A stretch of 64,000 bases of DNA from a virus. The position numbers were made by a program, and so were the translations under genes. Each line of letters opens with the position of its first letter. Position 1 is the first letter of the stretch. The notes under the pieces were generated by a model. It saw only the letters and a list, made by a program, of their open reading frames with translations. It had not been told where the DNA came from and did not search any database. This document shows, piece by piece, positions 13,335 through 59,737 of this stretch. The stretch lies in the UHGV virus genome UHGV-0225074. One strand, written 5' to 3'.

Positions 13335-13551
13335 TTCTTCTCCTCATAACATAGTGGATTAAGGCCCCGAAGGGCCATGCAAAACCAATGGCAAAGCAGA
13401 TTTCAGACCAGTCTCGATCTGTACGGGCTTTATAAATCTGCTTCAGGACTACGTCCTTTTCCATCTTTACTGAGTATACCACAGCAATTATCGCATATGC
13501 AACACCAAAAAGTCCTACCAGAGCTTCAATCATCCCATCTTGCTCCAGCAC
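13321..13551 (-). CDS. membrane protein (76 aa)
   Basis: Two hydrophobic segments. Confidence 0.45.
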   Translation of the reverse strand: MLEQDGMIEALVGLFGVAYAIIAVVYSVKMEKDVVLKQIYKARTDRDWSEICFAIGFAWPFGALIHYVMRRRNATA

Positions 13552-14603
13552 ATGTCCTGAGCCGTCATGAGGACCCTTGCAAACAGGTCAAGATCCGCCA
13601 TTTTAGGAAGTTGTGTCTTTTTGTACAAATCTTCCCGGATATAACGATCCTTCTCGTCAGCCCATGAGAGCAATTCGTCAAGAGTCCATTTACCTGCCCG
13701 GATGTCGAGAAGTTCCTGAGCATCAGGACGCTTCACGAGTACCTTACCCTCAGAAAGGATCTCTTCCGCCATACGCATCAGGCGTACAAGGTGCATCGCG
13801 TGTTTGGTATCATAACCAAAGTCAACTTCGAGCTGATGACGAACTTCGTTTCGGTTCTGTTTCCATGTCCAATAGTTACGATGCTTCTCTTTGGCCTGTT
13901 TGTGTTCCTCTGCCAAATATTTGACAATAAAGACAGGTTTTCTCCGCTTGTCAGAATCAGAAAGTTGCTGATAGTCAACATGGCGAATTGAACCGTCAGC
14001 ATTGAACATCCCTGAGCTACTGAAGTTTTCCATCACCCCATAGATATCGTTCCCATAAGGTACAAGGATACACATATCGTTGAGATTGTTCATTGCTTCC
14101 ATGAAGCGATCATGTTTAATTGCCCCAGCAAGGAACTCGTTCTCACTATAGTTGTGAACTAAGCGGAAGAACTCCTTTTGCGTAGGCTTTGCCTCTGGCT
14201 GAGGATTGCTGATCCACTTATCATGACCGCGAATACGCTTAAGCTGTGCCATCGCATAGCCAGAAAAGGAGAACGCTACCTTACTGGTCAGTAGCGCCGG
14301 AGCCATTGTGCGAAGATATTCATAAACTTCAGAGGTTTGCAGAATATCCTTATCATCGACAAACATCAGTTCGATAATGTTGGGGTTCATCTCTGCAAAC
14401 AATTTCATGAAGTTTGTCAGCTCATAAATCTTCCCATCTTCTTCATCTTTCAGTGTCTGCTCTTTGATGTTAAAGAACGGGGTGCGAATGAATTTAGGAG
14501 GGGCGCAGAACAGACCCCGGATATCCACATCACTAGTTGGCAGATTTGTGCCATAAGCCAAACTTCCTGAGTGGCATCGCATCACTTCGAAATTTTCCAT
14601 CAT
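13530..14603 (-). CDS. nucleotidyltransferase-fold protein with OAS/cGAS/CD-NTase-like motif
   Basis: HSGSLAYGTNLPTSDVDIRGLF matches the GS-x3-GT-x-L-x3-SD-x-D signature. Confidence 0.5.
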   Translation of the reverse strand: MMENFEVMRCHSGSLAYGTNLPTSDVDIRGLFCAPPKFIRTPFFNIKEQTLKDEEDGKIYELTNFMKLFAEMNPNIIELMFVDDKDILQTSEVYEYLRTMAPALLTSKVAFSFSGYAMAQLKRIRGHDKWISNPQPEAKPTQKEFFRLVHNYSENEFLAGAIKHDRFMEAMNNLNDMCILVPYGNDIYGVMENFSSSGMFNADGSIRHVDYQQLSDSDKRRKPVFIVKYLAEEHKQAKEKHRNYWTWKQNRNEVRHQLEVDFGYDTKHAMHLVRLMRMAEEILSEGKVLVKRPDAQELLDIRAGKWTLDELLSWADEKDRYIREDLYKKTQLPKMADLDLFARVLMTAQDMCWSKMG

Positions 14604-14609
14604 CTCTCC

Positions 14610-14984
14610 TTAGGAGGTTACCAGTTTCATCGGGCGTTTCATATCCCAAAAGTTCAGGAGGCCCTGACACAGTTGCTTTGTGGGCAGACCATCTTTATTC
14701 ATCGGGGCTTCGTCACGCAGACGGCGGATCTCTTCAAGCAGAAGGATCACCTCATCTGGATAATAACCAGTAGGCTCTTCCGCCTTGATCATACAGATAC
14801 CAGGTTTCCACTTAGAAAAAGAGTAACGACTCTCGTCTTCTTTCCGGTTAGGGTATGCATCAACCAACACCTTGGCTAGCTTACCCCGGATCTGCTTTAC
14901 AATGCCGGGTTTCAGTTCATTGTACCCGAAATAAATATAAACAGAGTCGCCAACCTTGAGAGTATCGCCACGAACATCATTCAT
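14610..14984 (-). CDS. hypothetical protein (124 aa)
   Basis: ORF. Confidence 0.45.
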   Translation of the reverse strand: MNDVRGDTLKVGDSVYIYFGYNELKPGIVKQIRGKLAKVLVDAYPNRKEDESRYSFSKWKPGICMIKAEEPTGYYPDEVILLLEEIRRLRDEAPMNKDGLPTKQLCQGLLNFWDMKRPMKLVTS

Positions 14985-14985
14985 G

Positions 14986-15477
14986 CTATTCTCCTTTCAG
15001 TCGGAAAGATTTGATCATGGTAATCAGGTCTTTCTCCACTTGGGTATAGTTGTGGATAACATTTCCCATCTCATCACGATACTGATTCGCAATTTGTGGA
15101 CCTGACAGTTGACCTGGTCGGTATACGAGATCCGCAACTTCCATGTATTGTGGATTGTACATATACTCTGGTAGTACAACAGCAACTGCCGTCATTGCCC
15201 CGTTAAGAGCATCCTTTTCCTCGCAGAACGAGGCCCACGGGTACGTAGCTGAAACAGGGATCAGCTTTTGACACAGGGATTGAAGGCTTGACTGATAACC
15301 GCCATTAAGAACAATGATAGTCTTATCTTCATCAGCCCATTCCAATACTAACTTACCTGCCTTTGTCTTGGCAGGGGTGTAGTCACGGAATACCTCAGCG
15401 ATCGCATGAGCGGACTGAATTCCGGCATGGATACCTGCAATATACTGATTTACTACGCAATACATACGTGTCTTCAT
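14986..15477 (-). CDS. PTH2-like peptidyl-tRNA hydrolase family protein (putative)
   Basis: GIHAGIQSAHA resembles the PTH2 'K..aQ.SHA' motif. Confidence 0.35.
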   Translation of the reverse strand: MKTRMYCVVNQYIAGIHAGIQSAHAIAEVFRDYTPAKTKAGKLVLEWADEDKTIIVLNGGYQSSLQSLCQKLIPVSATYPWASFCEEKDALNGAMTAVAVVLPEYMYNPQYMEVADLVYRPGQLSGPQIANQYRDEMGNVIHNYTQVEKDLITMIKSFRLKGE

Positions 15478-16214: not shown

Positions 16215-16665
16215 TATTCTGCTCCTCCAGCCAATCCCCAAGCTCATCCCTGGTCTGTTTGAAAGACTCAAGTTCAAGCAGTTTTTCATCTTTTTCCGTG
16301 AGCCTGTCTGCCAGGTTGAAAAGTCTTGCTAACGCATGGTTGAGCAGCGTTTTCTCAAATAGGGTTGCCCAAGAAATCCCTTTAAAACTGATTGAGTGAT
16401 CAGTCCCATACTCAGTTATATCGAAGATTTCCACCTTCTCTATGCGGAAAGGAAGCTCCCCATTTTTCCACACAAGAAATTTCCTTTTCCCTTCATATGC
16501 AGTCCTAAAGTTGTTCGCCTCTTTTTCCAAGAACTTAAGGAATTCCCAAGCCGGGTAATCACATCTCGCCACAAGTCGAGCATACTCTGCCTTCGCGTCT
16601 ATAGTATTCTTTGGAGAGCGTCTTATCCACCACAGGTTAAAGTCTTCGTGACTTACAAGTTTCAT
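16207..16665 (-). CDS. hypothetical protein (152 aa)
   Basis: ORF. Confidence 0.45.
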   Translation of the reverse strand: MKLVSHEDFNLWWIRRSPKNTIDAKAEYARLVARCDYPAWEFLKFLEKEANNFRTAYEGKRKFLVWKNGELPFRIEKVEIFDITEYGTDHSISFKGISWATLFEKTLLNHALARLFNLADRLTEKDEKLLELESFKQTRDELGDWLEEQNNA

Positions 16666-17909
16666 GATCTCTCCTTAAGAACATTACGGATTGCATCGAT
16701 ACGTGCAACACGGATCGCCTCACCGATCTCCTTGCCGCTTTTGCCTTTCTCCAGCATTGCGGAAGATACCGCCTTGCTGTCCATATTTACAACCGCCTCG
16801 AAAGCATCAAGGAGAATTTTTCCTTGCGGGTATTCCTTGTCTGCGTGGGTGGCACCGCGACCACGGGCATCGCAGAAACAAGCGTCTGCTAAGGCAAACA
16901 CCTTATCCTGTGTCTTCTGACTAGCCACGTTACCTGCGGCTTCGAAAAGCTTGATCATGGAACGTGGCTTGATTCCTTTATTATTCCCACGGCCCAAAAT
17001 GCAATGCACACGAGTATGGTGCTCTGTCACGTACAGTGCAATATCCCTGAATTCGTTAGGAACTCGAATCCGACTGCACAGCGTCCGCACAGGATCAAGA
17101 CCAGCCTCTTCATGACCGTGAAGATTACCGTACTTACGGAAAGTGATCGCCTTTCCAAAGTCATGACACAGCACCGCAAATTTCACCTGAGGAGAGCAAA
17201 AGGTTTTATCGGCCTGTTGCAGACACATCAACGTATGAATGAAAGCGTCTCCCTCAGGGTGATGTTCTGGTGGTTGCTCTACTCCACGTAGGGAATCCAG
17301 TTCTGGAAGTTCGCCCATAATCGACATGTGGTAGGCGTAATTATGGAAGTTTTTGGAATTTAAGGCCTTTTCCATTTCTTTCCATTTCCGCTCAGGGCTA
17401 ATCTCCGCAAGACGGTGACGATTATTAAACATAAGTGTGTATGTTTTATGGTCAACAGACCAACTCTCACCCAACTGCGACTTAAGACGGAAAAGACGCA
17501 GAATACGCAGAGGGTCATCCATGAATGCCGACGTCGTATGACGAAGAGTCATGTTTGACAGGTCATCCATACCATTGAACGGGTCAATGATAAATCCTGT
17601 TTCCATGTCTTTAGCCATCGCATTGATCGTCAGGTCACGACGCGATAAATCCTCTTCCAGAGTTACATCCGGGCTGAAGAAGGTCTCAAAGCCAGTATGG
17701 CCTTCACCAGTTTTACGCTCAGTACGGGCCAGTGCGTATTCTTCTTTGGTTTCAGGATGAAGGTAGACAGGAAAAGCGGCGCCAACCTGGGTGAAACCTT
17801 TTTCAATCATCTCTTCGTGTGTTGCACCCACAACCACGTAATCACGGTCATGAACTGGACGACCAAGCAACCCATCACGAACAGCGCCACCTACCAGATA
17901 TACTTTCAT
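16662..17909 (-). CDS. cca: tRNA nucleotidyltransferase (class II CCA-adding enzyme) with HD domain
   Basis: N-terminal GGAVRD ... RD.D head motif and HDFGK HD motif. Confidence 0.8.
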   Translation of the reverse strand: MKVYLVGGAVRDGLLGRPVHDRDYVVVGATHEEMIEKGFTQVGAAFPVYLHPETKEEYALARTERKTGEGHTGFETFFSPDVTLEEDLSRRDLTINAMAKDMETGFIIDPFNGMDDLSNMTLRHTTSAFMDDPLRILRLFRLKSQLGESWSVDHKTYTLMFNNRHRLAEISPERKWKEMEKALNSKNFHNYAYHMSIMGELPELDSLRGVEQPPEHHPEGDAFIHTLMCLQQADKTFCSPQVKFAVLCHDFGKAITFRKYGNLHGHEEAGLDPVRTLCSRIRVPNEFRDIALYVTEHHTRVHCILGRGNNKGIKPRSMIKLFEAAGNVASQKTQDKVFALADACFCDARGRGATHADKEYPQGKILLDAFEAVVNMDSKAVSSAMLEKGKSGKEIGEAIRVARIDAIRNVLKERS

Positions 17910-18474: not shown

Positions 18475-18779
18475 TCAGTAATCTCCAGCTCTTCTGCGGT
18501 ATACACATCGTTACCTTCGTACACTGTACCACCAATACGCACGACGAATGTACGATCAACAACCTTACCAAAGTGTAAAGTTCTTGATCCTCCGCCCGTG
18601 GTTAAGTAGACATCCCGACTAGTGCGTGCAGTCCCGCACAACTTATCCTCGGAATAAATAGCCATCTCTGTCCCAGCAGGTATTGCTACGACTGCTGTTA
18701 CAATTTGTCCAACAGTAGAAGATGTTCCCACAACTTCACTGCACAGATCTCTAACAACGGTATAGATTTTATTAATCAT
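18471..18779 (-). CDS. hypothetical protein (102 aa)
   Basis: ORF. Confidence 0.45.
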   Translation of the reverse strand: MINKIYTVVRDLCSEVVGTSSTVGQIVTAVVAIPAGTEMAIYSEDKLCGTARTSRDVYLTTGGGSRTLHFGKVVDRTFVVRIGGTVYEGNDVYTAEELEITE

Positions 18780-43833: not shown

Positions 43834-44241
43834 TTACTGTAATTTCAATGAGTTACGCAGACGACGCTCTTGAGCATCACGAGTTTCCTGCGGAACACTG
43901 TGAATAGAATCATTCCCGTGGCGGTTCTCGACCACTAGGCTGATAACACGATACCCATTCTCCGCAGCGAGATCAAGATAAGGTTTCAGTTCTTTTTCAC
44001 TGGTAGAAGTATTAGACAAGATGATTTTACGAAATTTCCATTCCATCATTTCCTTTACTTGATCTTGGCACCATTTATGCGCTGCCTGGATATTTTCAGG
44101 TTTCCAGTCGTAAACACCATCTTCCGTGTAGTGAAATTTATCTGCTTCACAGATAGGCCACAAACCTTCTGCTAGCATATCTGCAACTGTAGATTTACCA
44201 GCACCAGACACACCGCGCAGGATAATCAGAGTCTTTTCCAT
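43834..44241 (-). CDS. P-loop kinase (polynucleotide kinase-like domain)
   Basis: LRGVSGAGKSTVA Walker A; 135 aa, kinase domain only. Confidence 0.5.
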   Translation of the reverse strand: MEKTLIILRGVSGAGKSTVADMLAEGLWPICEADKFHYTEDGVYDWKPENIQAAHKWCQDQVKEMMEWKFRKIILSNTSTSEKELKPYLDLAAENGYRVISLVVENRHGNDSIHSVPQETRDAQERRLRNSLKLQ

Positions 44242-44250
44242 CTCTTCTCC

Positions 44251-44595
44251 TCAGTAATTGTTTCTCAAGATCGTAATACGATACTTCGAGAAGCTCTCTT
44301 TTGCAAGCATGAACTTTTGTGCAGCAGAAGGGTTAGACGTGTGGACATAGAGTTTAGCATCATGCACAGGAAGTTTCCCATACACAAGCTTCTCTTCCAA
44401 GGCTAACAGGCAGTCATAGCCCTCCATTTCTGAATCTTCACCGAGGTCATTGTCGAAATGCCACTCTGTGACATAACGATAGAACTTTGACCGATTATCA
44501 AGAAAATCCATAAATTTCTGAGAGGTCTTGAACCACAATGCATCAGGATAACCGTAGTCTTTAGGGTCTCTTAAATCGTCAAGCCAGACAATCAT
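44251..44595 (-). CDS. hypothetical protein (114 aa)
   Basis: ORF between kinase and ligase. Confidence 0.45.
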   Translation of the reverse strand: MIVWLDDLRDPKDYGYPDALWFKTSQKFMDFLDNRSKFYRYVTEWHFDNDLGEDSEMEGYDCLLALEEKLVYGKLPVHDAKLYVHTSNPSAAQKFMLAKESFSKYRITILRNNY

Positions 44596-45554
44596 TTTTG
44601 AACTCCAACGTAAAAACGACTATCGCGATCAAAGAGGTCTTCAATCGCAAAATAATCTTCAACAACCTGACGACGTTTTTGAGAGTCCATCCCAGCCCAG
44701 TCGTCTTTAGAGTAATACTCACGAATATGGTCTAGCAACTCGTAATACTCTTCGTCAATACGCTTCTTGGCATCTTTCGGGTTATCCCAGATCATATCCC
44801 ACTTGTTATCACCTCCACGCATCAGGAATTTCTTCGCCAGATAATGTGGGGACTTGATTTTCAAAAGTAGTTCGCTATTTTCGTCATCTGTCCCGATATT
44901 TCGGACAACAAAACCTTCGTGGCTAACAGCATGACTGGCTGCAACGACATCGCCAAATGCACGGACATCCCATTGAGGACGTTTTGCACCGATCACTTCA
45001 GCGATGCGATCAAGTTTGTGCTCTTCAACCATAACACCGTTTAAAGCGAGATCACGGACACCAATCAGATAAGCACCTTCTTTCTCTTCCACAATATGTG
45101 GGTCGCTGCTATCGCATATTTCGAAAATGAAAGTGTAATCTTCACGGAAAGAAATCAGATCAAAATTCATTTTTTCGAGGTACTTACGAGCCAATTCTGA
45201 AAACTCAGAATCCAATGTCCCTGTTGTTGAAACGAGCAGCTTGTCTTTGTGTATTGCCGCTGTAGCCATAAAACCATTGACCTTGCGGGAACAAACAACC
45301 GGTTTGTCAAGAGGAAGGTCAGTTCCATTCTCGAAGCGGTTGAAAATCTTAGTGAAAGGCCAGATAATCACGTTGTCTTCTGAATCAACAACCATGCCAC
45401 GGCACTCAAGCAGTCGTGGGTCAGTATGCCACAGGTTATCCCAGAACACATTGTTCTTATACTTCAGCACAGAAAGACCCGCGAACGGGCCTTCGGTGTA
45501 AGTCTTTTTGGTTACCAGTTTTTTAGCAACCAAATCGTCTACGTTGAATTTCAT
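44592..45554 (-). CDS. Rnl2-like RNA ligase
   Basis: Motif I KVNG, motif IV EGFVVR, motif V K..K (LKIKSPHYLAKK); 320 aa. Confidence 0.55.
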   Translation of the reverse strand: MKFNVDDLVAKKLVTKKTYTEGPFAGLSVLKYKNNVFWDNLWHTDPRLLECRGMVVDSEDNVIIWPFTKIFNRFENGTDLPLDKPVVCSRKVNGFMATAAIHKDKLLVSTTGTLDSEFSELARKYLEKMNFDLISFREDYTFIFEICDSSDPHIVEEKEGAYLIGVRDLALNGVMVEEHKLDRIAEVIGAKRPQWDVRAFGDVVAASHAVSHEGFVVRNIGTDDENSELLLKIKSPHYLAKKFLMRGGDNKWDMIWDNPKDAKKRIDEEYYELLDHIREYYSKDDWAGMDSQKRRQVVEDYFAIEDLFDRDSRFYVGVQK

Positions 45555-45720
45555 GTTCTCTCCTTCGTCTGAGATTTTTCAATAGTTTGAGCACTTCTTT
45601 TTGTGCTGATTTCATTTCACTGTAGTCATCATAGATGCTCAGGTCTAGTTCGTCAACATATTCTTCAAGCTCGCTAATCAAAAAGGCCACGTTATGGATA
45701 AGGTCAAGATCTTTTTTCAT
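45523..45720 (-). CDS. hypothetical protein (65 aa)
   Basis: ORF. Confidence 0.4.
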   Translation of the reverse strand: MKKDLDLIHNVAFLISELEEYVDELDLSIYDDYSEMKSAQKEVLKLLKNLRRRREHEIQRRRFGC

Positions 45721-46060
45721 AACCTTCCGCCTGATAATATGTTGTATTATAAGGAGTTTCGATACTGAAGCTTATCTGGCACATCTCCTGAGCAAGATAT
45801 TTTCCAAGTTCGACAGCCATTGATAATATCTCATGCTCCTGACGCTGGAAACGTGGATACTGCATCAACCGCACAGTCATACCATCTTCGACACCACCTG
45901 TGTAAACATAGGTGCATGGAGCAATCTGCACACAAGCACCTTGCATAACCCACTGGCGACACAAATTCTCGGCCTGAGCATAATCCCCGGCAATGTGAAT
46001 AGTAGCGAAGAAAGACTTCGCCGTGTTACGTGCTATGAAATTTCGTTCTTTGTTATGCAT
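45704..46060 (-). CDS. hypothetical protein (118 aa)
   Basis: ORF. Confidence 0.45.
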   Translation of the reverse strand: MHNKERNFIARNTAKSFFATIHIAGDYAQAENLCRQWVMQGACVQIAPCTYVYTGGVEDGMTVRLMQYPRFQRQEHEILSMAVELGKYLAQEMCQISFSIETPYNTTYYQAEGYEKRS

Positions 46061-46061
46061 C

Positions 46062-46655
46062 TTATTCTCCGTGGTCAGCAGTGTAGATTGGTTTTTTGAG
46101 GCACATCAGGACTGCCTCACGCATCGTCAGAGGACGACCATGAACATCCCAACCTACATCGAGAATACGTCCACCGGGGGCTGTATAGGAGCCGTGGCTA
46201 TGCCCGTGCAACATAACTGACCCGTGGTGTGCTTTGTTCCACGATGCGAACGGATAGTGAGACATACACACATGCACCTTCTCTTTTCCAGTGCTGAAGT
46301 TAATCTCTTTATAATCAACGACTTCATGACCGAATTCACGGAAGATACGTTTCGTATCTCGGTTGTCATGGTTACCACCAACCAGAATGATCTTTCCGTT
46401 GATCTTTTCAAGGATGTCACGAACGCGAGGCTCCATGTAACGTCCGTAAGCAATCACGAAGTCACCAAGGTGCGCTACGACATCATCTGGTTTAACGTGC
46501 TTATTCCAGATTTCAATCATTCCTGCATTCATGGCATACAGACTTTCACGGTCTTCTTTTGGGCCGTACAGTTTCTTCCGGAATTTATCACACGAGGGAA
46601 AACCCAGAATATTGGTGTGCCACCAGTGCGTGTCTGACGTTACGTGGTCGATCAT
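46062..46655 (-). CDS. calcineurin-like metallophosphoesterase
   Basis: SDTHW ... HLGDF ... GGNHD ... GHSH metallophosphatase motifs. Confidence 0.7.
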   Translation of the reverse strand: MIDHVTSDTHWWHTNILGFPSCDKFRKKLYGPKEDRESLYAMNAGMIEIWNKHVKPDDVVAHLGDFVIAYGRYMEPRVRDILEKINGKIILVGGNHDNRDTKRIFREFGHEVVDYKEINFSTGKEKVHVCMSHYPFASWNKAHHGSVMLHGHSHGSYTAPGGRILDVGWDVHGRPLTMREAVLMCLKKPIYTADHGE

Positions 46656-48473: not shown

Positions 48474-48474
48474 A

Positions 48475-52256: not shown

Positions 52257-52273
52257 TATCTACCACATCAAAC

Positions 52274-52346
52274 GTTCAGTAGCTCAGTTGGTAGAGCAGG
52301 TTCTTCATACGGACAAGGTCAGTGGTTCAATTCCGCTCTGAACGAT
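52274..52346 (+). tRNA. tRNA-Met(CAT)
   Basis: Cloverleaf by eye: CGTTCAG/CTGAACG acceptor, GCTC/GAGC D-stem, loop TTCATAC, T-loop TTCAATT. Confidence 0.6.
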
Positions 52347-52349
52347 AAG

Positions 52350-52424
52350 GCCCTCAAGCTCATTAGGTATGAGCAATCGACTCATAATCGAGAGGTAGGC
52401 AGGTTCGAATCCTCCGGGGGTCAC
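52350..52424 (+). tRNA. tRNA with CAT anticodon (Met/fMet/Ile-lysidine), CCA encoded
   Basis: Acceptor GGCCCTC/GGGGGTC with G-U pairs; loop CTCATAA; T-loop TTCGAAT. Confidence 0.55.
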
Positions 52425-52518
52425 CAATTAAAAATGTTGGCGAGGATATCTGATTGAGTTAGTATCCTCATGAACATAAACGGGACAAATTCCCAAATAA
52501 AATGCAAAGGAGAAAATT

Positions 52519-52830
52519 ATGACTAAGAAAAATACTGCTAAGAAAGTATCCGCCATCGACGCTATCAAACAGCCTTTCCAGTTTGAGTCGAAGTCTACTC
52601 AGACTCATTCTGCACCGCACGATGTGCGTCTCGGTGGTGTAGAGAAAACCGTATCAGTTTTCGATCGCCGTAAAGGCGAGTATAAATCCGAAACCCGGAT
52701 TGAAGGTGGTCAGATTATCTCTGCTTCTTACCGCATCCGCACAGGAAAGACCAAGCGTGAACGTGCTGGTAAGGTAAAGGAAACTAAGGTTGTTGAAACC
52801 GTAGCTCCGAAGAGTAAGAAGAAAAAGTAA
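52519..52830 (+). CDS. Lys-rich basic protein (103 aa)
   Basis: AAGGAG RBS; C-terminal APKSKKKK; inside tRNA array. Confidence 0.5.
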   Translation: MTKKNTAKKVSAIDAIKQPFQFESKSTQTHSAPHDVRLGGVEKTVSVFDRRKGEYKSETRIEGGQIISASYRIRTGKTKRERAGKVKETKVVETVAPKSKKKK

Positions 52831-52892
52831 TTTCTCCGGCATGGGGAATGACGATTCCGTGAAACGTCTTTAAAAACACGGGCATGTTTTCG

Positions 52893-52965
52893 GGGGTATT
52901 AACACAGCGGTTAGTGTAGCGGCCTCTTAAGCCGAAGGTCGAAGGTTCGAATCCTTCATGCCCCA
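52893..52965 (+). tRNA. tRNA-Lys(CTT), CCA encoded
   Basis: GGGGTAT/ATGCCCC acceptor, ACAC/GTGT D-stem, loop CTCTTAA, GAAGG-TTCGAAT-CCTTC T-arm. Confidence 0.6.
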
Positions 52966-53096
52966 CCAAGTTTGAAATGAGAGAGATACGGGTTCGACTC
53001 CCGTTCTTGCTGGCCCGGCTCGCGTAGTGGCACAGGGCGATAGCTTAAATGGACGAAAGTGCTCTCGTTTCAAATCTAAACCAAAAGGAGAACGAA

Positions 53097-53285
53097 ATGT
53101 TCGGATCCCTGTTACGTATGGCTGGCGATATTGTTGGTACTGCTGTTGTTGTCACGGCAACTGTTGCAGAACCTTTTGTAGATGTAGCCGCAGAAGTTCT
53201 TGACGCCGCTGATGAGATTATCGTATCACCTACCGCAGACGTCGTTGGTGAAGTTTGTGACTCCATTAAGGACATTGTACGATGA
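53097..53285 (+). CDS. small hydrophobic/acidic protein (62 aa)
   Basis: AAAGGAG RBS before ATG 53097. Confidence 0.45.
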   Translation: MFGSLLRMAGDIVGTAVVVTATVAEPFVDVAAEVLDAADEIIVSPTADVVGEVCDSIKDIVR

Positions 53286-53419
53286 GTGGCGGTGTTATCT
53301 TTATCATCATGTCAGTGATCTCTTTCCTGCTTGTTCTTTGGTATTATTGGTCATGGTTTGAAAACAACCCTACCACCGAAGAAATAATCAAAGATTCGCT
53401 TGACAAACACAATCTGTAA
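53282..53419 (+). CDS. small membrane protein (45 aa)
   Basis: ATGA coupling; single TM; not in ORF track. Confidence 0.4.
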   Translation: MSGGVIFIIMSVISFLLVLWYYWSWFENNPTTEEIIKDSLDKHNL

Positions 53420-53428
53420 GTGTAGTAT
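53400..53428 (+). promoter_or_regulatory. sigma70-like promoter (TTGACA-17-TAGTAT)
   Basis: Consensus -35 with 17-bp spacer, 30 nt upstream of 53461 gene. Confidence 0.5.
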
Positions 53429-53460
53429 TTAAAACCTAATTTAACGCAAAGGAGAACTTA

Positions 53461-54072
53461 ATGACTGATTCTAAAACTGTAATTTCCGTAACTGAACGTG
53501 CCACTAAAGCAGTAACCACTGCCGCTACTGGTCTGACTAAAGTAGTCGCTGAACTGCAATCTCTGGCAGAAGGGTCTGAAAAGATCAGTCAGGAAATTCA
53601 GTTTAAGCAGCAGGAACTGGGACAAATTGAAGTTCAGTTCAACGAAAAACTGGCAGAAGAAAAATCCAAGCTGAAGATCAAAGTTCTGGAAAATGAAGAT
53701 TCCGTTCTGAACTCTATCCTGAAAGCTCGCGGCCTTGTAGCTGTAGAACCGGGTGTTGTTGAAGACCTTCGTGCAGAGCTGGCGATCTCTCAGCAGAACA
53801 ATGCTGAAGCTGTAGAAAGCGCAGTTGCCGACGTTAAACGTAGCGCTGCAATCGAACTGAATGCGGTTAAGGCAAATCTGGAATCTGCTCACAAGGTTGC
53901 AATTGCAGAACTTACTGCGAATAGCAAGGCTAAGGATGACCGTATTGCAATGCTGACAGAACAGCTTGAAGCAGCGCGTGGTGATCTGAAGGCTGAACGC
54001 GAAACCCGTCTGGAAATCGCAAAAGCTGATGCTAACCGCCAGGGCGTTGTTGTCAACACTGGCAAAAACTAA
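53461..54072 (+). CDS. coiled-coil protein (203 aa), codon-optimised
   Basis: AAGGAG RBS; Ala/Glu/Lys-rich heptad-like sequence; E. coli-preferred codons. Confidence 0.55.
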   Translation: MTDSKTVISVTERATKAVTTAATGLTKVVAELQSLAEGSEKISQEIQFKQQELGQIEVQFNEKLAEEKSKLKIKVLENEDSVLNSILKARGLVAVEPGVVEDLRAELAISQQNNAEAVESAVADVKRSAAIELNAVKANLESAHKVAIAELTANSKAKDDRIAMLTEQLEAARGDLKAERETRLEIAKADANRQGVVVNTGKN

Positions 54073-54146
54073 TGCGTAGTGTCGACACGGATGTCGGCAA
54101 ATATTTGAAGTAACTTAAATTTTAAATTTCATGAGAGGAGAATTCT

Positions 54147-54794
54147 ATGTCTACTAAGATGTCTGTAACCCGCGCTCTGGCTACCCTGACCAAGGTTGAG
54201 GAAAAGATTCAGAAGCGTATCGAAGCGCTGAACACGATTCACATCGCGAAAGGCACTGACGCAAACCGTCAGATCCCAGGCTCTATCCAGAGCGTTGAGG
54301 ACTTCGAGAAATCTGCTCAGGCAGACTTCCAGGGTGTTCAGGATCTTCTGGCTGTTCGCGACGACCTGAAGGCGAAAGTTGTTCAGTCAAACGCTGTAAC
54401 AAAAGTTGAGATCGCTGGCGAGTCTATGACCGTAGCTCAGGCGATTGAACGTAAACGCACCATCGTTTTCAAAGAGCTTCTGCTTGGCAAACTGAAGTCT
54501 CAGTATAATCATGCTCAGGTTCGCCTGAACCGTGATACACAGGAATTCGAAGCGAAGCTTGAAGCTGCTCGTGCTCCATATGTCCAACGTGATAAAGCGC
54601 CAGACGCTGCACAGTTGGCTGTAGTAGAAGCGCCAGTTCGTAGCATGGGAACTCCTTCCATTGTCGACCCACTGGGTCTGGCAGATCGCATTCGTTCTCT
54701 GGAAGCAGAGATTGAAGACTTCAAGTCTAACGTTGACTTTGTTCTTTCCGAGTCAAATGCACGGACTGAAGTAGAGATTGAAGGATCAATCTAA
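54147..54794 (+). CDS. coiled-coil protein (215 aa), codon-optimised
   Basis: GAGAGGAG RBS; same style as 53461 gene. Confidence 0.55.
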   Translation: MSTKMSVTRALATLTKVEEKIQKRIEALNTIHIAKGTDANRQIPGSIQSVEDFEKSAQADFQGVQDLLAVRDDLKAKVVQSNAVTKVEIAGESMTVAQAIERKRTIVFKELLLGKLKSQYNHAQVRLNRDTQEFEAKLEAARAPYVQRDKAPDAAQLAVVEAPVRSMGTPSIVDPLGLADRIRSLEAEIEDFKSNVDFVLSESNARTEVEIEGSI

Positions 54795-55195
54795 AATATT
54801 TGCAGGAATTCTTGATTAACATCTTGTAATTCCTGTGAATAGCTGGTAAAGTTTTTAAATGCTGTTTTTGGTTAGCGAAGTCAGAAACATCTTGCCTCTA
54901 CCGGGGCCGGAGGTTAAACTGCTCCGAACATAATCATATAGGATGATACTTAAACGTATGTTTCCGTCAGTCCGCACAATGATGCGGTTTGATCGAAATT
55001 GTCGAATCGCGAATTCGAAAGACTTCAACATTCAGCATTCAAAGATTATCGTTCAAAGCTTAATGTTTAAACTTGAAGCTTCTAAACCGTAAAGCTAAAA
55101 TTTCTTTGATTACTTAAATCCTGGGTATAGGATCTTAGCTCACAAGATATGGCTAACTGACTCCTCCAGGCTGTTAATCGGAAACAGCATTTCTT

Positions 55196-55268
55196 GCTCG
55201 TATAGCTCAGTTGGTAGAGCAACTCCCTTGTAAGGAGAAGGTCGTGGGTTCAAGTCCTACTGCGAGCA
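55196..55268 (+). tRNA. tRNA-Thr(TGT), CCA encoded
   Basis: GCTCGTA/TGCGAGC acceptor, loop CTTGTAA, T-loop TTCAAGT. Confidence 0.65.
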
Positions 55269-55277
55269 CCAAACAAT

Positions 55278-55349
55278 TTCTCGATAGCTTACTTTGGTTA
55301 GAGCGGTCCCACGATAGGGACGGTACAGGTTCGATTCCTGTTCGAGAAG
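55278..55349 (+). tRNA. atypical tRNA-like gene, anticodon unclear (6-nt loop ACGATA on GTCCC/GGGAC stem)
   Basis: Perfect acceptor TTCTCGA/TCGAGAA, D- and T-arms present, CCA encoded, irregular anticodon arm. Confidence 0.35.
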
Positions 55350-55354
55350 CCAAT

Positions 55355-55460
55355 GCAGGGTAGGCGGTTTGTCAACCGCGAGGTCCATCCAGACCTGAAA
55401 AATATGCCAGAACTAACAGTACGGCTAAATACATAGGTGGTTAGATTCCACCGCCCTGCT
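55355..55460 (+). tRNA. atypical long (106 nt) tRNA-like gene with about 38-nt insert in the variable region
   Basis: Acceptor GCAGGGT/GCCCTGC, D-arm GCGG/CCGC, T-arm GGTGG-TTAGATT-CCACC, CCA encoded; anticodon arm irregular. Confidence 0.3.
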
Positions 55461-55645
55461 CCAAATCTATTCTGCTAGGTTCTGAAACACTTAAAATCTC
55501 CTGCATCTAGTGGGGTGTGATCTCTGTGTCGGCTTTGATATCAAGTTGATGAAAGGGATGGCGTAGGCTCTTCTTCGCAAGTAGAGGCGCTTCGGAGAGG
55601 CAACGGCGGTTGTCAGGACATCGGGACTTCACAAAATAGATTTCT

Positions 55646-55731
55646 GCGGGATTGGTGGTATTGGCAGTACACACGAGGCTTAAGACTTCGTAGGCCTCTG
55701 GGCCTTGAGGGTTCGAATCCCTCATCCCGCA
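55646..55731 (+). tRNA. tRNA-Leu(TAA), type II, CCA encoded
   Basis: GCGGGAT/ATCCCGC acceptor, loop CTTAAGA, variable-arm hairpin AGGCC/GGCCT. Confidence 0.6.
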
Positions 55732-55740
55732 CCAGTTTAA

Positions 55741-55819
55741 GAGGGCGTATCTCAACGGGCTTCTAACCCGTCGTTAATCGAGTAATTGGAGTATGCGGGT
55801 TCGAATCCTGCCGCCTTCG
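55741..55819 (+). tRNA. tRNA-Arg(TCT)-like, atypical (no clear D-arm)
   Basis: Perfect ACGGG-CTTCTAA-CCCGT anticodon arm and T-arm, CCA encoded; only 7 nt between acceptor and anticodon stem. Confidence 0.3.
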
Positions 55820-55938
55820 CCAAATTCACAGGACAGCCGGGACGGGTTTACTCCGAGCTGTGGAAGCGTCGAAAGACTATAGGACACGTCTTGACCCGAA
55901 TGTGTGGGAGCGAATTGAAATAATCGGGTCCCCCAAAA

Positions 55939-56009
55939 GCACGGTTGCTGGAGTGGCAACAGCTTTCTCTGCAAAAGAAATGTCAGGTGTTCGATTCACC
56001 TACCGTGCT
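55939..56009 (+). tRNA. tRNA-Cys(GCA), CCA encoded
   Basis: GCACGGT/ACCGTGC acceptor, TTTCT-CTGCAAA-AGAAA anticodon arm. Confidence 0.6.
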
Positions 56010-56051
56010 CCAAGTTGTTGAATATTTTTATAAAAAATGATAAAATGGCCC

Positions 56052-56080
56052 TTGACAGATAAATTTAAATCTGATAACAT
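56052..56080 (+). promoter_or_regulatory. sigma70-like promoter (TTGACA-17-TAACAT)
   Basis: Consensus -35 upstream of 56098 gene. Confidence 0.35.
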
Positions 56081-56097
56081 TAATAAGTGGGGTTATT

Positions 56098-56448
56098 ATG
56101 GCAGTAAAACAACAACTTACAAAGCGTCGTAGAGGAAAAGGTAGACCCCTTAAAGAAGAGTCTAATGCTATTCAGCTTGAGAAGAATATCCTTGACCTTA
56201 AGACCAATATGATTGCTATGATTCCTGATGCTCATAAGGTATTGAAAGATCTTATGACAAGTGCCACAACAAAGGACAATATCAGGGAAAATATTGCTCG
56301 ATTTGTAATTGAGAAAGGCGAACAAATGCTTTCTGATTACTTCGATGAAGAGAATGAAGAAGCTGAAACAACTAATGTTGATGACAATAAGTCTACTCCT
56401 ATGAGTAGGCCGTTCACAACAGATATTGTTCAGTTCAAACAAGGTTAA
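56098..56448 (+). CDS. hypothetical protein with basic N-terminus (116 aa)
   Basis: ORF inside tRNA array; KRRRGKGRP. Confidence 0.5.
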   Translation: MAVKQQLTKRRRGKGRPLKEESNAIQLEKNILDLKTNMIAMIPDAHKVLKDLMTSATTKDNIRENIARFVIEKGEQMLSDYFDEENEEAETTNVDDNKSTPMSRPFTTDIVQFKQG

Positions 56449-56450
56449 TT

Positions 56451-56531
56451 GGCTCGTTGGCAGAATGGCTATTGCAGCGGATTGTAAATCCGTGCCCTTC
56501 GGGGTTCCTGGTTCGAGTCCAGGGTGGGCCA
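56451..56531 (+). tRNA. tRNA-Tyr(GTA), type II, CCA encoded
   Basis: Loop TTGTAAA on GCGGA/TCCGT stem; variable-arm hairpin; T-loop TTCGAGT. Confidence 0.55.
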
Positions 56532-56540
56532 CCAATTAAT

Positions 56541-56613
56541 GGGAGTATAGCTCAGTCAGTAGAGCGCTCGACCGATAATCGAGAGGTCGCAGGAGCAAAG
56601 CCTGCTACTCCCA
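56541..56613 (+). tRNA. tRNA-Ile(GAT), unusual T-loop AGCAAAG
   Basis: GGGAGTA/TACTCCC acceptor, CTCGA-CCGATAA-TCGAG anticodon arm, CCA encoded. Confidence 0.5.
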
Positions 56614-56706
56614 CCACTCTCCGTCATAGTACCGCATCCTGACGTTTCGGATTGCATAATCAAGGTACTGGGAACTAGTAAGATACTATGACGGGATCGA
56701 TTTAAA

Positions 56707-56780
56707 GCGTTATTAGTGTTAGCGGTCCAGCACTCCGTCCTTCCAAGTCGGAAGCATCGGTTCGAATCCGATATAACGCT
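56707..56780 (+). tRNA. tRNA-Gly(TCC), CCA encoded
   Basis: GCGTTAT/ATAACGC acceptor, loop CTTCCAA, ATCGG-TTCGAAT-CCGAT T-arm. Confidence 0.6.
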
Positions 56781-56864
56781 CCAAATACGCCCCTAAACTG
56801 ATGAACGTCTGCGCGGCTGGAAACACCCACTCAATAGTTCAGATACCCAGGGGCAACAAACAAA

Positions 56865-56937
56865 TGCTCCTATCGGCTAAATGGACAGGCCGTCAGACTT
56901 TCAATCTGGAAATCCGAGTTCGATCCTCGGTGGGAGT
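56865..56937 (+). tRNA. tRNA-Glu(TTC), CCA encoded
   Basis: TCAGA-CTTTCAA-TCTGG anticodon arm, CCGAG-TTCGATC-CTCGG T-arm. Confidence 0.55.
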
Positions 56938-56947
56938 ACCAAATAAT

Positions 56948-57048
56948 GGGTATCTAAGGCGAATTGGAAAACGCCCGGTGAAGTGGGTGCGCACCTTGTA
57001 GCTCACTGGCATACTTGCTGAGGTTCGTTTGAGTCGGACTGATGCCCA
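56948..57048 (+). tRNA. atypical long tRNA-like element (about 100 nt)
   Basis: Acceptor GGGTATC/GATGCCC plus CCA and a good D-arm GGCG-AATTGGAAAA-CGCC; anticodon and T regions do not fold canonically. Confidence 0.25.
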
Positions 57049-57055
57049 CCAAACA

Positions 57056-57135
57056 ATGTGCGGGTAACTTAATTGCTCCGGGAGCAAGCTGGTCTCCAAA
57101 GCCAGTCGTAAGGGGTTCGACTCCTCACCTTCATG
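57056..57135 (+). tRNA. tRNA-Trp(CCA)-like, acceptor stem poorly paired
   Basis: Good D-arm TTGC/GCAA and CTGGT-CTCCAAA-GCCAG anticodon arm; T-loop TTCGACT; 3' G-CCA; 5' end uncertain. Confidence 0.3.
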
Positions 57136-57154
57136 CCAGATAATGGGGGCGACC

Positions 57155-57285
57155 GGATGTTGAAAATGACTATGATCTACCGCTGCAACGGGAAATCTTG
57201 TCGGTCATAAGTAAGCATGGCGGCAACAAAATAAGCTGAGGATTGCAGTCCGATACTTAGCCTGGCTCGGTTTCAGGCGCCCTCA
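57155..57285 (+). ncRNA. long tRNA-like or structured RNA element bracketed by acceptor-like stem GGGGGCG/CGCCCTC
   Basis: Pairing termini only; internal fold unresolved. Confidence 0.15.
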
Positions 57286-57293
57286 CCGATTGT

Positions 57294-57366
57294 AGGGAGA
57301 TGGTGTAATTGGTTAGCACACGGGTCTTTGAAATCCGTAGTTCAGGTTCAAGTCCTGATCTCCCTG
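57294..57366 (+). tRNA. tRNA-Gln(TTG), CCA encoded
   Basis: AGGGAGA/TCTCCCT acceptor, CGGGT-CTTTGAA-ATCCG anticodon arm, T-loop TTCAAGT. Confidence 0.6.
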
Positions 57367-57563
57367 CCAAGTTTGAGTGTTTTCTTTTGAGAATACTCAT
57401 GCGTGGCCTAAGCATTTATCAGATGATGTTCAACCTGTGACGTTGAGGAAGTGGGAGCGATACCCACAGGTCACCCCAATTTGCAGATACGTGATTATCT
57501 CTATCTTCCCACGTCATGTGTTCTAGTCGAGATTTTCGTTTGTACGATATCTGCCGCGAATTT

Positions 57564-57651
57564 GGTGGAATGGTCGAGAGGTTTAAGACAGCACCTTGGA
57601 AAGGTGTAGGCCCCCAAAAGGGGTCCGTAGGTTCGAATCCTACTTCCACCG
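57564..57651 (+). tRNA. tRNA-Ser(GGA), type II, CCA encoded
   Basis: GGTGGAA/TTCCACC acceptor, GCACC-TTGGAAA-GGTGT anticodon arm, long variable-arm hairpin. Confidence 0.6.
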
Positions 57652-57672
57652 CCACTTTATGGAGGGTTTATG

Positions 57673-57828
57673 CAGAAACTTTTGCGTTGCAAGAAAGTGT
57701 TTGGACGCTGTAGGCTCCACGGTAGTAACTGTGGTGTTGCAGAAGAAATTCAATCAGTCCCTATTACTCGTGCGAAAGAAAAAGCAGATCTTCGTAAAGA
57801 AATTAAAGAACAATTGGAAGATTAACCC
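57673..57828 (+). CDS. possible small Cys-rich protein (51 aa)
   Basis: GGAGGG upstream (short spacing); C..C..C..C; stop lies inside tRNA-Ser(GCT) 5' end. Confidence 0.2.
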
Positions 57829-57905
57829 TAATCAGGTAAGGGATCTCTTTGCTAAAGAGACAGTAGCTCCGAAAGGGGTGTGCGAGTTCAAGTCTTGCAT
57901 CTTCC
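57816..57905 (+). tRNA. tRNA-Ser(GCT), type II, CCA encoded
   Basis: GGAAGAT/ATCTTCC acceptor, TCTCT-TTGCTAA-AGAGA anticodon arm, variable-arm hairpin. Confidence 0.55.
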
Positions 57906-57933
57906 GCCAAAACAACAAGGAGGAACAAATCGA

Positions 57934-58380
57934 ATGGCGACGAAAACTGTTTTGAAAACAGCCGAGCATGATGAGTGCCTTGGGAGTTCAACTCTCCCTT
58001 CCTCCGCCAAATATTGCAATGGGTGCGCAACAACGTATCCAATAAGCGAGTTCTACACGATAGGTAAGTACAAAGACAAAATGAAATATAAACCTTTGTG
58101 CAAACGTTGTGAGAATAAACGCAGAAAAGAAAGGAATCTTGAGATAATCAAGGAAGTGTTTGGAGAAAATCTCTGCTGCTCATCTTGTGGATATGACAAG
58201 TGCTTTGCTGCTCTTGACTTCCATCATGTAGATGCAGAATCGAAAGACTTCAATATCGCTAAGATGCTACTTGGGACGCCAGCAAAAGAGAAGCTGGCAG
58301 CAGAATTGAAGAAGTGTATGATTCTTTGTGCGAATTGTCACAGGGAGCACCACGCAGAAGAAAGATTATCGGGTAGGTAG
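57934..58380 (+). CDS. HNH homing endonuclease embedded in tRNA array
   Basis: AGGAGG RBS; CCSSCG ... FHHVD ... CANCHREHH HNH motif; 3' end overlaps tRNA-Lys(TTT). Confidence 0.7.
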   Translation: MATKTVLKTAEHDECLGSSTLPSSAKYCNGCATTYPISEFYTIGKYKDKMKYKPLCKRCENKRRKERNLEIIKEVFGENLCCSSCGYDKCFAALDFHHVDAESKDFNIAKMLLGTPAKEKLAAELKKCMILCANCHREHHAEERLSGR

Positions 58381-58443
58381 CCGAGCGGTCAGGCATTCGC
58401 CTTTTAAGCGAAGAGACGATGGGTTCAAATCCCTCCCTTCCCA
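58371..58443 (+). tRNA. tRNA-Lys(TTT), CCA encoded (T-stem weak)
   Basis: TTCGC-CTTTTAA-GCGAA anticodon arm, T-loop TTCAAAT. Confidence 0.45.
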
Positions 58444-58506
58444 CCAAATTGAATCGGTTAAAATAATTCTTGCAAAAGGTTGTTTTCACTGGTAAAGTAT
58501 TAAAAT

Positions 58507-58588
58507 GACGAGCTGGTTCATTGGTAGAACGGCGGACTGTTAATCCGCGAGCATTAGCTCTATGTAGGTTCAATTCCTACGCTCGTCG
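58507..58588 (+). tRNA. tRNA-Asn(GTT), long variable arm, CCA encoded
   Basis: GACGAGC/GCTCGTC acceptor, GCGGA-CTGTTAA-TCCGC anticodon arm, GTAGG-TTCAATT-CCTAC T-arm. Confidence 0.6.
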
Positions 58589-58598
58589 CCAAATTTAT

Positions 58599-58671
58599 GG
58601 GGATATGGTATTAGCGGCAAACATACTGGCCTGTCACGCCGGAGTCACGGGTTCGAATCCCGTTATCCTCG
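58599..58671 (+). tRNA. tRNA-Asp(GTC), CCA encoded
   Basis: CTGGC-CTGTCAC-GCCGG anticodon arm, ACGGG-TTCGAAT-CCCGT T-arm. Confidence 0.5.
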
Positions 58672-58678
58672 CCATCTT

Positions 58679-58749
58679 GGGAAATTAGTTAAGTGATATA
58701 ATGGCCTCTGGTGCTGAGGGCGTCTCCTGTTCGACTCAGGAATTTCCCG
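58679..58749 (+). tRNA. tRNA-His(GTG)? (anticodon loop TGGTGCT irregular), CCA encoded
   Basis: GGGAAAT/ATTTCCC acceptor, GTTA/TAAT D-stem, TCCTG-TTCGACT-CAGGA T-arm. Confidence 0.4.
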
Positions 58750-58894
58750 CCAATTTGATATGTTGATGTAAATTGCCGGAAGGCACTCAAAATGAGTTCG
58801 ACGTATCAAACCAATTGTACCCTAACGGGGCATGATATTAGCTAGCCAGCGATACCAGTTGCAGTGTCTGGGATAATTAAAATTCTGCACTTAT

Positions 58895-58969
58895 CTCTCC
58901 TTAGCGCAGTCTGGTCAGCGTGGGTGCTTTGGATGCATCGGGTCCCAGGTTCGAATCCTGGAGGGGAGA
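58895..58969 (+). tRNA. tRNA-Pro(TGG), CCA encoded
   Basis: GGTGC-TTTGGAT-GCATC anticodon arm, CCAGG-TTCGAAT-CCTGG T-arm. Confidence 0.6.
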
Positions 58970-59031
58970 CCAAATAAGGTTTATCGTGGGGCGATGGAAA
59001 CTTAGTTAACCATGCGACGGTAAAAATTAAT

Positions 59032-59101
59032 GTGGGTGTCCTGACGGACAGGCAACGGTCTACGAAGCCGTTTGATGTAGGTTCGAGTCCTTCCATCCAC
59101 A
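59032..59101 (+). tRNA. tRNA-Arg(ACG), short D-loop, CCA encoded
   Basis: ACGGT-CTACGAA-GCCGT anticodon arm, T-loop TTCGAGT. Confidence 0.5.
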
Positions 59102-59108
59102 CCACCAT

Positions 59109-59181
59109 GGGGCTGTAGTTTATTTGGATAAAATCACAGGCTTGCACCTTGTAGAACTGAGTTCGATTCTCAGTGGCTCCA
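59109..59181 (+). tRNA. tRNA-Ala(TGC) with G3:U70, CCA encoded
   Basis: ACAGG-CTTGCAC-CTTGT anticodon arm, CTGAG-TTCGATT-CTCAG T-arm; G3-U70 AlaRS identity pair. Confidence 0.55.
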
Positions 59182-59350
59182 CCAAATGAAGAAGCCGGAC
59201 TCGGTGTACAACGACATGGCAAGTCTTCGGCGTTAAAGGCATCCCTGGTACAAATGTGCTTTACACGGAGCAAGGATTGATGAGTATATTGCCTATAAGT
59301 GCTTGTCATGGTATTTGTCCGAGGGTGGCATTCTCCCGAAGGATCGATTA

Positions 59351-59432
59351 GGGCAAGTGGCGAAATTGGTAGACGCACCAGATTTAGGTTCTGGCGTCCT
59401 ATGACGTGAGAGTTCGAGTCTCTCCTTGCCCA
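59351..59432 (+). tRNA. tRNA-Leu(TAG), type II, CCA encoded
   Basis: GGGCAAG/CTTGCCC acceptor, GCG-AAATTGGTAGA-CGC D-arm, CCAGA-TTTAGGT-TCTGG anticodon arm, variable-arm hairpin. Confidence 0.65.
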
Positions 59433-59441
59433 CCACACATC

Positions 59442-59524
59442 GGGTCGGTAGCTCAGTTGGTAGAGCACCTGATTGAAGATCAGGGTGTCGGTGGTTCGAA
59501 TCCACCCCGTCCCGCCAAACAATT
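59442..59524 (+). tRNA. tRNA-Phe(GAA), CCA encoded
   Basis: GCTC-AGTTGGTA-GAGC D-arm, CCTGA-TTGAAGA-TCAGG anticodon arm, GGTGG-TTCGAAT-CCACC T-arm. Confidence 0.6.
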
Positions 59525-59618
59525 CTCTGTGATGCAGGTTCAACTCCTGTCAGGACGGCAAAGCCTTCGGGTGGAGAGGTCGTGTGCGTGAAGTGGTTAA
59601 CGGCAGGGAATCCAATAT

Positions 59619-59691
59619 TGCGGGTTAGAACTCAGGGAGTTCATCGGTCTCATAAGCCGAACGAAGAGCAGTTCGAGTCTGCTACCCGCAT
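59619..59691 (+). tRNA. third tRNA with CAT anticodon (Met/fMet/Ile-lysidine), CCA encoded
   Basis: TGCGGGT/ACCCGCA acceptor, GAAC/GTTC D-stem, TCGGT-CTCATAA-GCCGA anticodon arm, AGCAG-TTCGAGT-CTGCT T-arm. Confidence 0.55.
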
Positions 59692-59737
59692 CCAAATTCT
59701 AATAACAATAAATTATTATATCTCCTCTCCTTTGCCT

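Follow-up and report, generated by a model that had tools for sequence, protein, structure and literature searches.

A probable RlaP-family nucleotidyltransferase encoded with tRNA-maintenance genes in a Klebsiella phage group

In a 64,000-nucleotide (nt) stretch of the virus genome UHGV-0225074, hereafter called the window, we analyzed a minus-strand open reading frame (ORF) that encodes a Pol-beta superfamily nucleotidyltransferase (NTase). This protein almost certainly belongs to the RlaP family (PF10127), making it an unassayed member of a known and recently characterized family. On balance, its most likely function would be RNA-end repair by template-independent rebuilding of trimmed tRNA ends, a reading drawn from homology and gene context. 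A preliminary description of the window had assigned the gene to the Mab21/OAS/cGAS/CD-NTase branch of the superfamily; the superfamily and the GS...DxD motif on which that assignment drew were correctly recognized, whereas the branch was not, as the Pfam family is RlaP.

The Pfam RlaP model, which is titled 'RNA repair pathway DNA polymerase beta family' and takes its name from 'RNA ligase-associating Pol-beta', matched residues 9–125 of the NTase at 56.5 bits (E = 4.4e-15; gathering cut-off, 23 bits), corresponding to profile positions 23–141 of 249. Pfam matches were listed at E ≤ 0.01, and at this level the only other hit was NTP_transf_2 (PF01909) at 16.7 bits, under its 21-bit cut-off; the Mab21, OAS, and SMODS models did not match. 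PADLOC and NCBIfam gave no match for the ORF, and sequence and profile searches found no relative in the Protein Data Bank for the protein, its clade profile, or the canonical RlaP profile. When the profile of the clade was compared with canonical bacterial RlaPs, hhalign returned a probability of 98.1 (E = 7e-14) over the N-terminal ~118 columns. The non-significant match between the C-domain profile and canonical RlaPs (E = 0.16) was in register, aligning R274 with R165, and the spacing of K267/H271/R274/E281 in the NTase was identical to that of K158/Y162/R165/H172 in canonical RlaPs. After deletion of residues 136–230 in silico, the RlaP match scored 57.8 bits and spanned profile positions 23–196 of 249. 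The alignment thus runs into the C-domain once these residues are removed, indicating that the two halves of the protein are collinear with the RlaP model and have an insertion between them.

Residues 11–32 of the NTase (HSGSLAYGTNLPTSDVDIRGLF) contain the N-terminal motif GS...SDVDIRG; both the ORF and the N-terminal sequence quoted in the preliminary description are real, the latter letter for letter. The GS...[DE]h[DE]h active-site motif of cGAS/OAS/CD-NTases is indeed present, but it is shared across the entire Pol-beta superfamily and therefore does not discriminate these enzymes. A GS...DxD motif alone does not make a cGAS/OAS enzyme, and our analysis corrects this tempting misreading. 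We aligned 112 homologs, comprising 76 viral sequences, 34 from cellular genome assemblies, T4 NrdC.11, and the protein itself. G13, S14, D25, and D27 were found in every aligned sequence (110–111 of 112, the rest being gaps), and the catalytic residues align with GSH.YG and SDLDLKG of canonical RlaPs. Position 56 was D or E in 111 of 112 homologs, including T4 NrdC.11, and position 78 was E or D in 109. Conservation makes D56 the likely third metal ligand, because it is kept in T4 NrdC.11 and E61 is not. Judging from these residues, the NTase should be catalytically intact and is predicted to be active. The C-domain carries the invariant motif E259-x3-G263-x-D265-x-K267-x3-H271-x2-R274-x6-E281, in which K267, H271, R274, and E281 do not vary across the alignment. 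A candidate HEPN RNase motif, R251-N-E-V-R-H256 (RNxxxH), was rejected, as H256 is replaced by S or A in most homologs.

An AlphaFold2 (AF2) model of the NTase, computed from a 30-sequence alignment, had a mean predicted local distance difference test (pLDDT) score of 90.6 and a predicted template modeling (pTM) score of 0.71. The model displays the two-domain layout of RlaPs, with an N-terminal NTase domain and then a C-terminal helical domain, and consists of an alpha/beta NTase domain with following helices (residues 1–135), a beta-rich insertion (~136–230), and an all-helical domain (231–356). The ~95-residue insertion, for which Pfam gave no match, is specific to the long phage-type clade described below. 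Minimal NTases whose C-domains are helical come closest in fold, and the nearest solved structures are the kanamycin NTase ANT(4'), LinB, MNT antitoxins, and Hailong HalB. The preliminary description had proposed cGAS, DncV, and OAS1 for fold comparison; none was the closest fold, and comparison with cGAS, OAS1, and CD-NTases stayed at noise level. Phage NTases of 232–287 residues in BFVD matched the model with template modeling (TM) scores of 0.72–0.81, normalized by target length.

The NTase ORF is clearly a genuine gene, as opposed to one open by chance. It lies tightly packed in a long minus-strand block, 6 nt past the stop codon of the upstream gene and overlapping the next gene, and PHROG 388 ('nucleotidyltransferase') matches its product end to end (1.4e-79). 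The ORF encodes 357 residues from its first ATG and 356 from its second (14600), and the upstream Shine-Dalgarno (SD) sequence AAGGAG stands 2 nt from the first and 5 nt from the second. Because of this spacing, and because near-identical GenBank proteins are annotated at 356 residues, the true start is probably 14600. Across positions 11.5–20 kb, promoter and terminator sites were as numerous as expected from shuffled sequence, and the scan therefore defines no transcription unit. Klebsiella phages in the genus Mydovirus (Vequintavirinae), including vB_Kpn_K45PH128C2, Seu621, and KpS8, share 96–97% identity with the window. Several records from 96–99% identical Mydovirus relatives already label the gene 'nucleotidyltransferase' or 'putative nucleotidyltransferase'. 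A word-indexed search yielded 3568 homologs, and an exhaustive HMMER scan found 5757 clusters (50% identity) at E ≤ 1e-3 and 610 at E ≤ 1e-30. Homologs occur in 395 of 50,697 phage records; the gene is widespread in phages and already generically annotated. In the closest public record (OY978796.1, 135286–136356), the features over the gene read 'tail sheath' and 'virion structural protein', which looks like shifted or erroneous annotation.

The name RlaP reflects an operonic association of the family with RNA ligases, and its members were predicted to restore lost nucleotides to cleaved RNAs before these are ligated (Burroughs & Aravind 2016, quoted in both PMC7824862 and PMC12776372). According to a preprint of December 2025, PfRlaP and PaRlaP, from Pseudomonas fluorescens and P. 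aeruginosa, add 1–2 nucleoside monophosphates to RNA 3'-OH ends from any nucleoside triphosphate (NTP), and from dATP too, with a preference for Mn2+ and, when offered a cleaved-tRNA mimic, for its 5' half (PMC12776372). Neither DNA nor protein is modified by these enzymes, and a tRNA missing one nucleotide of the anticodon loop partly regains aminoacylation through them (PMC12776372). The same work proposes that RlaP acts in tRNA repair, as an antidote against 'smart' ribotoxins, of which RloC is one (PMC12776372). In jumbo phages, RlaP has been described as the most prevalent repair NTase, with a distribution that mirrors that of RNA ligases (reviewed in PMC7824862). In the PfRlaP crystal structure, the last C-terminal helix is packed back on the NTase domain. 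The phage protein shares with the Pseudomonas enzymes its PF10127 membership, the core of GS, DxD, and a third Asp, the order of an N-terminal NTase and a C-terminal helical domain, the K-x3-[H/Y]-x2-R spacing of the C-domain, and, with the RNA ligase ~30 kb off, the genomic company of RNA-repair enzymes. Unlike them, it contains the beta-rich insertion and a diverged C-domain and lies outside any RtcB/RtcA operon.

By sequence, the phage NTase belongs to a distinct long and phage-rich clade of PF10127 that includes T4 NrdC.11, and bacterial members of this clade usually partner a canonical RlaP; this view follows from shared domains, a shared half-profile match to RlaP, and gene adjacency in bacteria. 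NrdC.11 has been listed as an RlaP-family member (PMC12776372), and its gene was deletable in a genome-reduction screen (PMC9825161). NrdC.11 (NP_049709, 336 residues) is a full-length homolog of the NTase (hhalign probability 96.8, query residues 8–317) with the same half-profile Pfam match and the same catalytic and C-domain residues, but it is only ~25% identical, and its neighbors in T4 are mobD and other nrdC.x genes. T4 is a lytic phage with RNA ligases and a polynucleotide kinase of its own. A scan of cellular genomes gave 35 loci with long-clade homologs: some are on contigs of megabase scale (Acidobacteriota and Vulcanimicrobiota) or on a Chloroflexia contig of 776 kb, and others are on shorter Myxococcota contigs. 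These bacterial proteins have both the N-domain and the C-domain of the phage protein, with 40–56% identity in the C-domain, and match the same half of the RlaP profile. The shortest of them lack residues ~148–233, aligning in the blocks 7–147 and 234–353. A canonical RlaP, either 255–299 residues long or contained in a longer ORF (342 or 518 residues), was immediately adjacent in 15 of 29 bacterial loci (L100–L121; for example, L100:7962-9687), usually on the same strand. The 29 loci also contained PNKP_ligase (2), Metallophos (3), and AAA_33 (2) genes near the long-clade gene; the remaining flanking genes were mostly not conserved, with a protein-kinase family recurring in 6 loci. The long and canonical RlaPs together look like a self-contained two-paralog module. 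No second RlaP paralog was present in the window or in the 9–133 kb region of a close relative.

The phage encodes further enzymes of tRNA maintenance (Table 1). The preliminary description was right that the window contains a canonical class II CCA-adding enzyme, with a PolyA_pol head and an HD domain; its match to NF008137, at 426 bits, falls slightly below the 451-bit cut-off. The CCA enzyme is of another family, and the NTase lacks a PolyA_pol match. As a template-independent RNA 3'-end NTase of the same superfamily, the CCA enzyme probably shares tRNA substrates with the NTase, but it adds C74, C75, and A76 only. Because the 3' CCA is already part of the sequence in 23 of the 24 phage tRNA genes, the phage CCA enzyme serves tRNA repair, not maturation, and the 24 phage tRNAs are likely clients of the repair enzymes. 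Several small proteins without an assigned role are encoded on the same strand between the PTH2-like gene and the CCA enzyme. A peptidyl-tRNA or acyl-tRNA hydrolase in this DUF7205/PTH2-like pair would be in keeping with a module that maintains tRNA 3' ends. A complete RNA end-healing and sealing cassette of kinase, cREC, RNA ligase, and phosphoesterase genes lies elsewhere in the window; operonic linkage of cREC to RNA ligases has been documented (PMC7824862). Beyond the region of the window, a close relative has genes for another RNA ligase and for a phosphatase.

Table 1. Coordinates of the NTase gene, its domains, and tRNA-maintenance genes in the window
Feature	Coordinates	Strand	Evidence
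Pol-beta NTase coding sequence, almost certainly RlaP family (PF10127)	13530..14603	minus	ORF, Pfam, PHROG 388, SD spacing, relatives' annotation
N-terminal NTase domain and following helices, residues 1–135	14199..14603	minus	Pfam (residues 9–125), hhalign, conservation, AF2
Beta-rich insertion of ~95 residues (136–230)	13914..14198	minus	AF2 model, short bacterial homologs
All-helical C-terminal domain (HEPN/KNTase-C-like), residues 231–357	13533..13913	minus	
DUF7205 protein, directly upstream of the NTase, 6-nt gap	14610..14984	minus	Pfam DUF7205, 1.5e-46
PTH2-like 'hydrolase' (phrog_3668), second gene upstream from the NTase	14986..15477	minus	PHROG, 8.2e-57; Pfam PTH2 sub-threshold, E = 0.008
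HD-domain class II CCA-adding enzyme, 2 kb upstream	16662..17909	minus	Pfam PolyA_pol, HD, PolyA_pol_RNAbd
RNA end-healing/sealing cassette	43834..46655	minus	Pfam; matching annotation in relative ON602736.1
P-loop AAA_33 kinase	43834..44241	minus	Pfam
cREC cyclic-phosphate domain	44251..44595	minus	Pfam
Rnl1-type RNA ligase	44592..45554	minus	Pfam
118-residue ORF in cassette, between Rnl1 and Metallophos		minus	
Metallophos phosphoesterase	46062..46655	minus	Pfam
Cluster of 24 phage tRNA genes	52273..59694	plus	ARAGORN

We compared gene neighborhoods across 79 viral loci related to this one. Of these, 19 encode a CCA enzyme no more than 3.7 kb upstream of the NTase and 1 more encodes it elsewhere in the flank, and in all but 2 of these 20 loci the NTase was at least 50% identical to the one studied here. 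The PTH2-like gene was near the NTase in 12 of the 79 loci (also in L089) and DUF7205 in 10; together, these two genes travel with the CCA enzyme and NTase down to ~40–50% NTase identity (L021, L070, and L089). The CCA enzyme directly abuts the NTase in locus L008, and a phage contig with a 55%-identical NTase has a Metallophos-x-x-AAA_33-CCA-RlaP operon in which stop and start codons overlap. By tblastn, homologs of the kinase, cREC, and Rnl1 proteins of the window were absent within 10 kb in the 79 loci, and Metallophos was found in one locus only. For a second set, we clustered viral NTases at 70% identity into 40 lineages and scanned 237 neighboring ORFs against Pfam. PolyA_pol (CCA) was a neighbor in 6 of these lineages, Metallophos in 5, and AAA_33 and PTH2 in 1 each.

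The activity that we favor can be laid out as a series of steps. The C-domain and the NTase domain would line a cleft for the NTP and the RNA 3' end, and the enzyme would, by homology to the Pseudomonas RlaPs, add 1–2 nucleotides to an RNA 3'-OH in a template-independent reaction favored by Mn2+. Gene context suggests that its clients would be host or phage tRNAs that host anticodon nucleases, or other toxins directed at tRNA, had cut and trimmed. The rebuilt tRNA could then be resealed by the phage kinase, the cREC and phosphoesterase proteins, and the Rnl1 ligase; alternatively, the neighboring CCA-adding enzyme might complete its 3' end. Our analysis shows the family membership, the intact active-site residues, the class of fold, and the co-occurrence of the partner genes; which RNA is the substrate, how many nucleotides are added, and a role in counter-defense are features that we infer for this enzyme.

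Several observations weigh against this function. Sequence similarity to canonical RlaPs is significant over the N-terminal half only, with E = 0.16 for the C-domain alone, and the characterized enzymes fall in a different sequence cluster from the long clade. The nearest solved folds act on small molecules or proteins, or make oligo-dA. Biochemical support comes from a single preprint in which the in vivo role is still a proposal (PMC12776372), and the characterized activity covers PfRlaP and PaRlaP, that of the long clade, T4 NrdC.11 included, being predicted. In the window, the end-healing cassette is on the NTase strand but ~30 kb away, and the RNA ligase is not adjacent to the NTase. Across the 40 phage lineages, RNA ligases are not among the frequent neighbors, the commonest being UvsX/RecA (19), UvsW-type helicases (14), and gp32 (11).

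We consider each of the alternative functions less likely than RNA-end repair. The last of these observations speaks for a role at DNA ends or in replication or recombination: the gene sits between gp32/UvsX and a UvsW-type helicase in about half of the 40 lineages, and RlaPs accept dNTPs (PMC12776372). However, this arrangement may be inherited order within one large phage clade, the characterized RlaPs do not extend DNA 3' ends (PMC12776372), and the conserved neighbors in the clade of this phage are the CCA enzyme and the PTH2-like hydrolase. We therefore regard such a role, or general RNA tailing apart from repair (for example, to mark host RNA for decay), as unlikely. The fold comparison could instead point to an MNT/KNTase/ANT-like transferase that modifies a protein or small molecule, for example by AMPylating a host HEPN RNase toxin in the manner of MntA antitoxins. 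This possibility is improbable, as the resemblance in fold is weak to moderate, the NTP_transf_2 match is under threshold, and no HEPN partner gene is adjacent to the NTase. HalB, also among the nearest folds, raises the prospect of a primer-independent oligonucleotide synthase making, for example, an oligo-dA decoy that keeps a host HalA-type channel closed, which we judge very improbable.

A signalling-type cGAS/OAS/CD-NTase, producing cyclic or 2'-5' oligonucleotides or decoys against CBASS-type immunity, is the most remote of these alternatives. In its favor is the N-terminal GS-x3-GT-x-L-x3-SD-x-D, which we take to resemble the OAS1 motif. Nothing but this superfamily-wide motif stands behind the idea, which is largely refuted: cGAS, OAS1, and CD-NTases share the superfamily and a generic GS...[DE]x[DE] motif with the phage protein but differ from it in the absence of a profile match, in a fold comparison at noise level, and in having no signalling partners near the NTase. 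The preliminary description had suggested a search of the neighboring genes for a cognate effector; these encode the DUF7205 protein, the PTH2-like hydrolase, small proteins, and the CCA enzyme, and none is an effector, receptor, or signal partner.

Within RNA-end repair, the NrdC.11-type clade might be a functionally distinct paralog that rebuilds acceptor ends past the reach of the CCA enzyme (for example, the discriminator base) or adds a specific nucleotide so as to complement the canonical enzyme. The diverged C-domain, the insertion, the bacterial pairing with canonical RlaP, and the phage link to the CCA enzyme and PTH2-like hydrolase make this specialization conceivable, and we hold it as a speculative idea that is rather unlikely to be right. 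If true, it would represent a new route of tRNA 3'-end repair against toxins that target the acceptor end, and the bacterial pairing offers a concrete hypothesis for experiments on the long clade.

Our results assign the gene to a family for which the chemistry was described only recently. The NTase, the CCA enzyme, the ligase/kinase/phosphoesterase cassette, and the 24 tRNA genes make up a full tRNA-maintenance kit in a group of Klebsiella phages, which bears on the escape of therapeutic Klebsiella phages from tRNA-targeting defenses.

Some related loci differ in gene order or in the form of the NTase. Loci L026–L069 (IMG/VR) and L006, with 40–50% identical NTases, contain a conserved run of gp32, UvsX/RecA, the NTase, a ~180-residue ORF, a ~152-residue ORF, and a UvsW-type helicase; this order could have been inherited or could point to another role. 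Homologs P0121, P0123, P0126, and P0129 have roughly double the length (~700 residues) and align in two or three separate stretches, and in some jumbo phages, PBECO4 and K64-1 among them, the NTase matches come in two pieces over ~1.2 kb (H27–H29). An intein, some other inserted element, or a fusion may account for these split or long homologs.

Other genes of the window were also noted. An ATP-dependent DNA ligase (41526–42827) and a SIR2 protein (42827–43603) adjoin the end-healing cassette. Within the tRNA cluster, ARAGORN called a tRNA of undetermined identity at 55278–55352 (plus strand) with a two-base 'anticodon (ga)'; at the corresponding place, between tRNA-Thr and tRNA-Leu, relative ON602736.1 has no annotated tRNA. 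A 177-residue protein (18776–19309, minus strand) consists of the N-terminal (DUF262-like) domain of GmrSD only, without the nuclease half. On the plus strand, a phosphoribosyl pyrophosphate (PRPP) synthetase gene (48442–49275), preceded by a gene for a small winged helix-turn-helix (wHTH) protein, adjoins one for a NAMPT/NAPRTase-family enzyme (49283–51022), and the two enzymes constitute an NAD+ salvage pair. Such pairs have been reported to counter NAD+-depleting defenses. A close relative also encodes NMNAT and PnuC.

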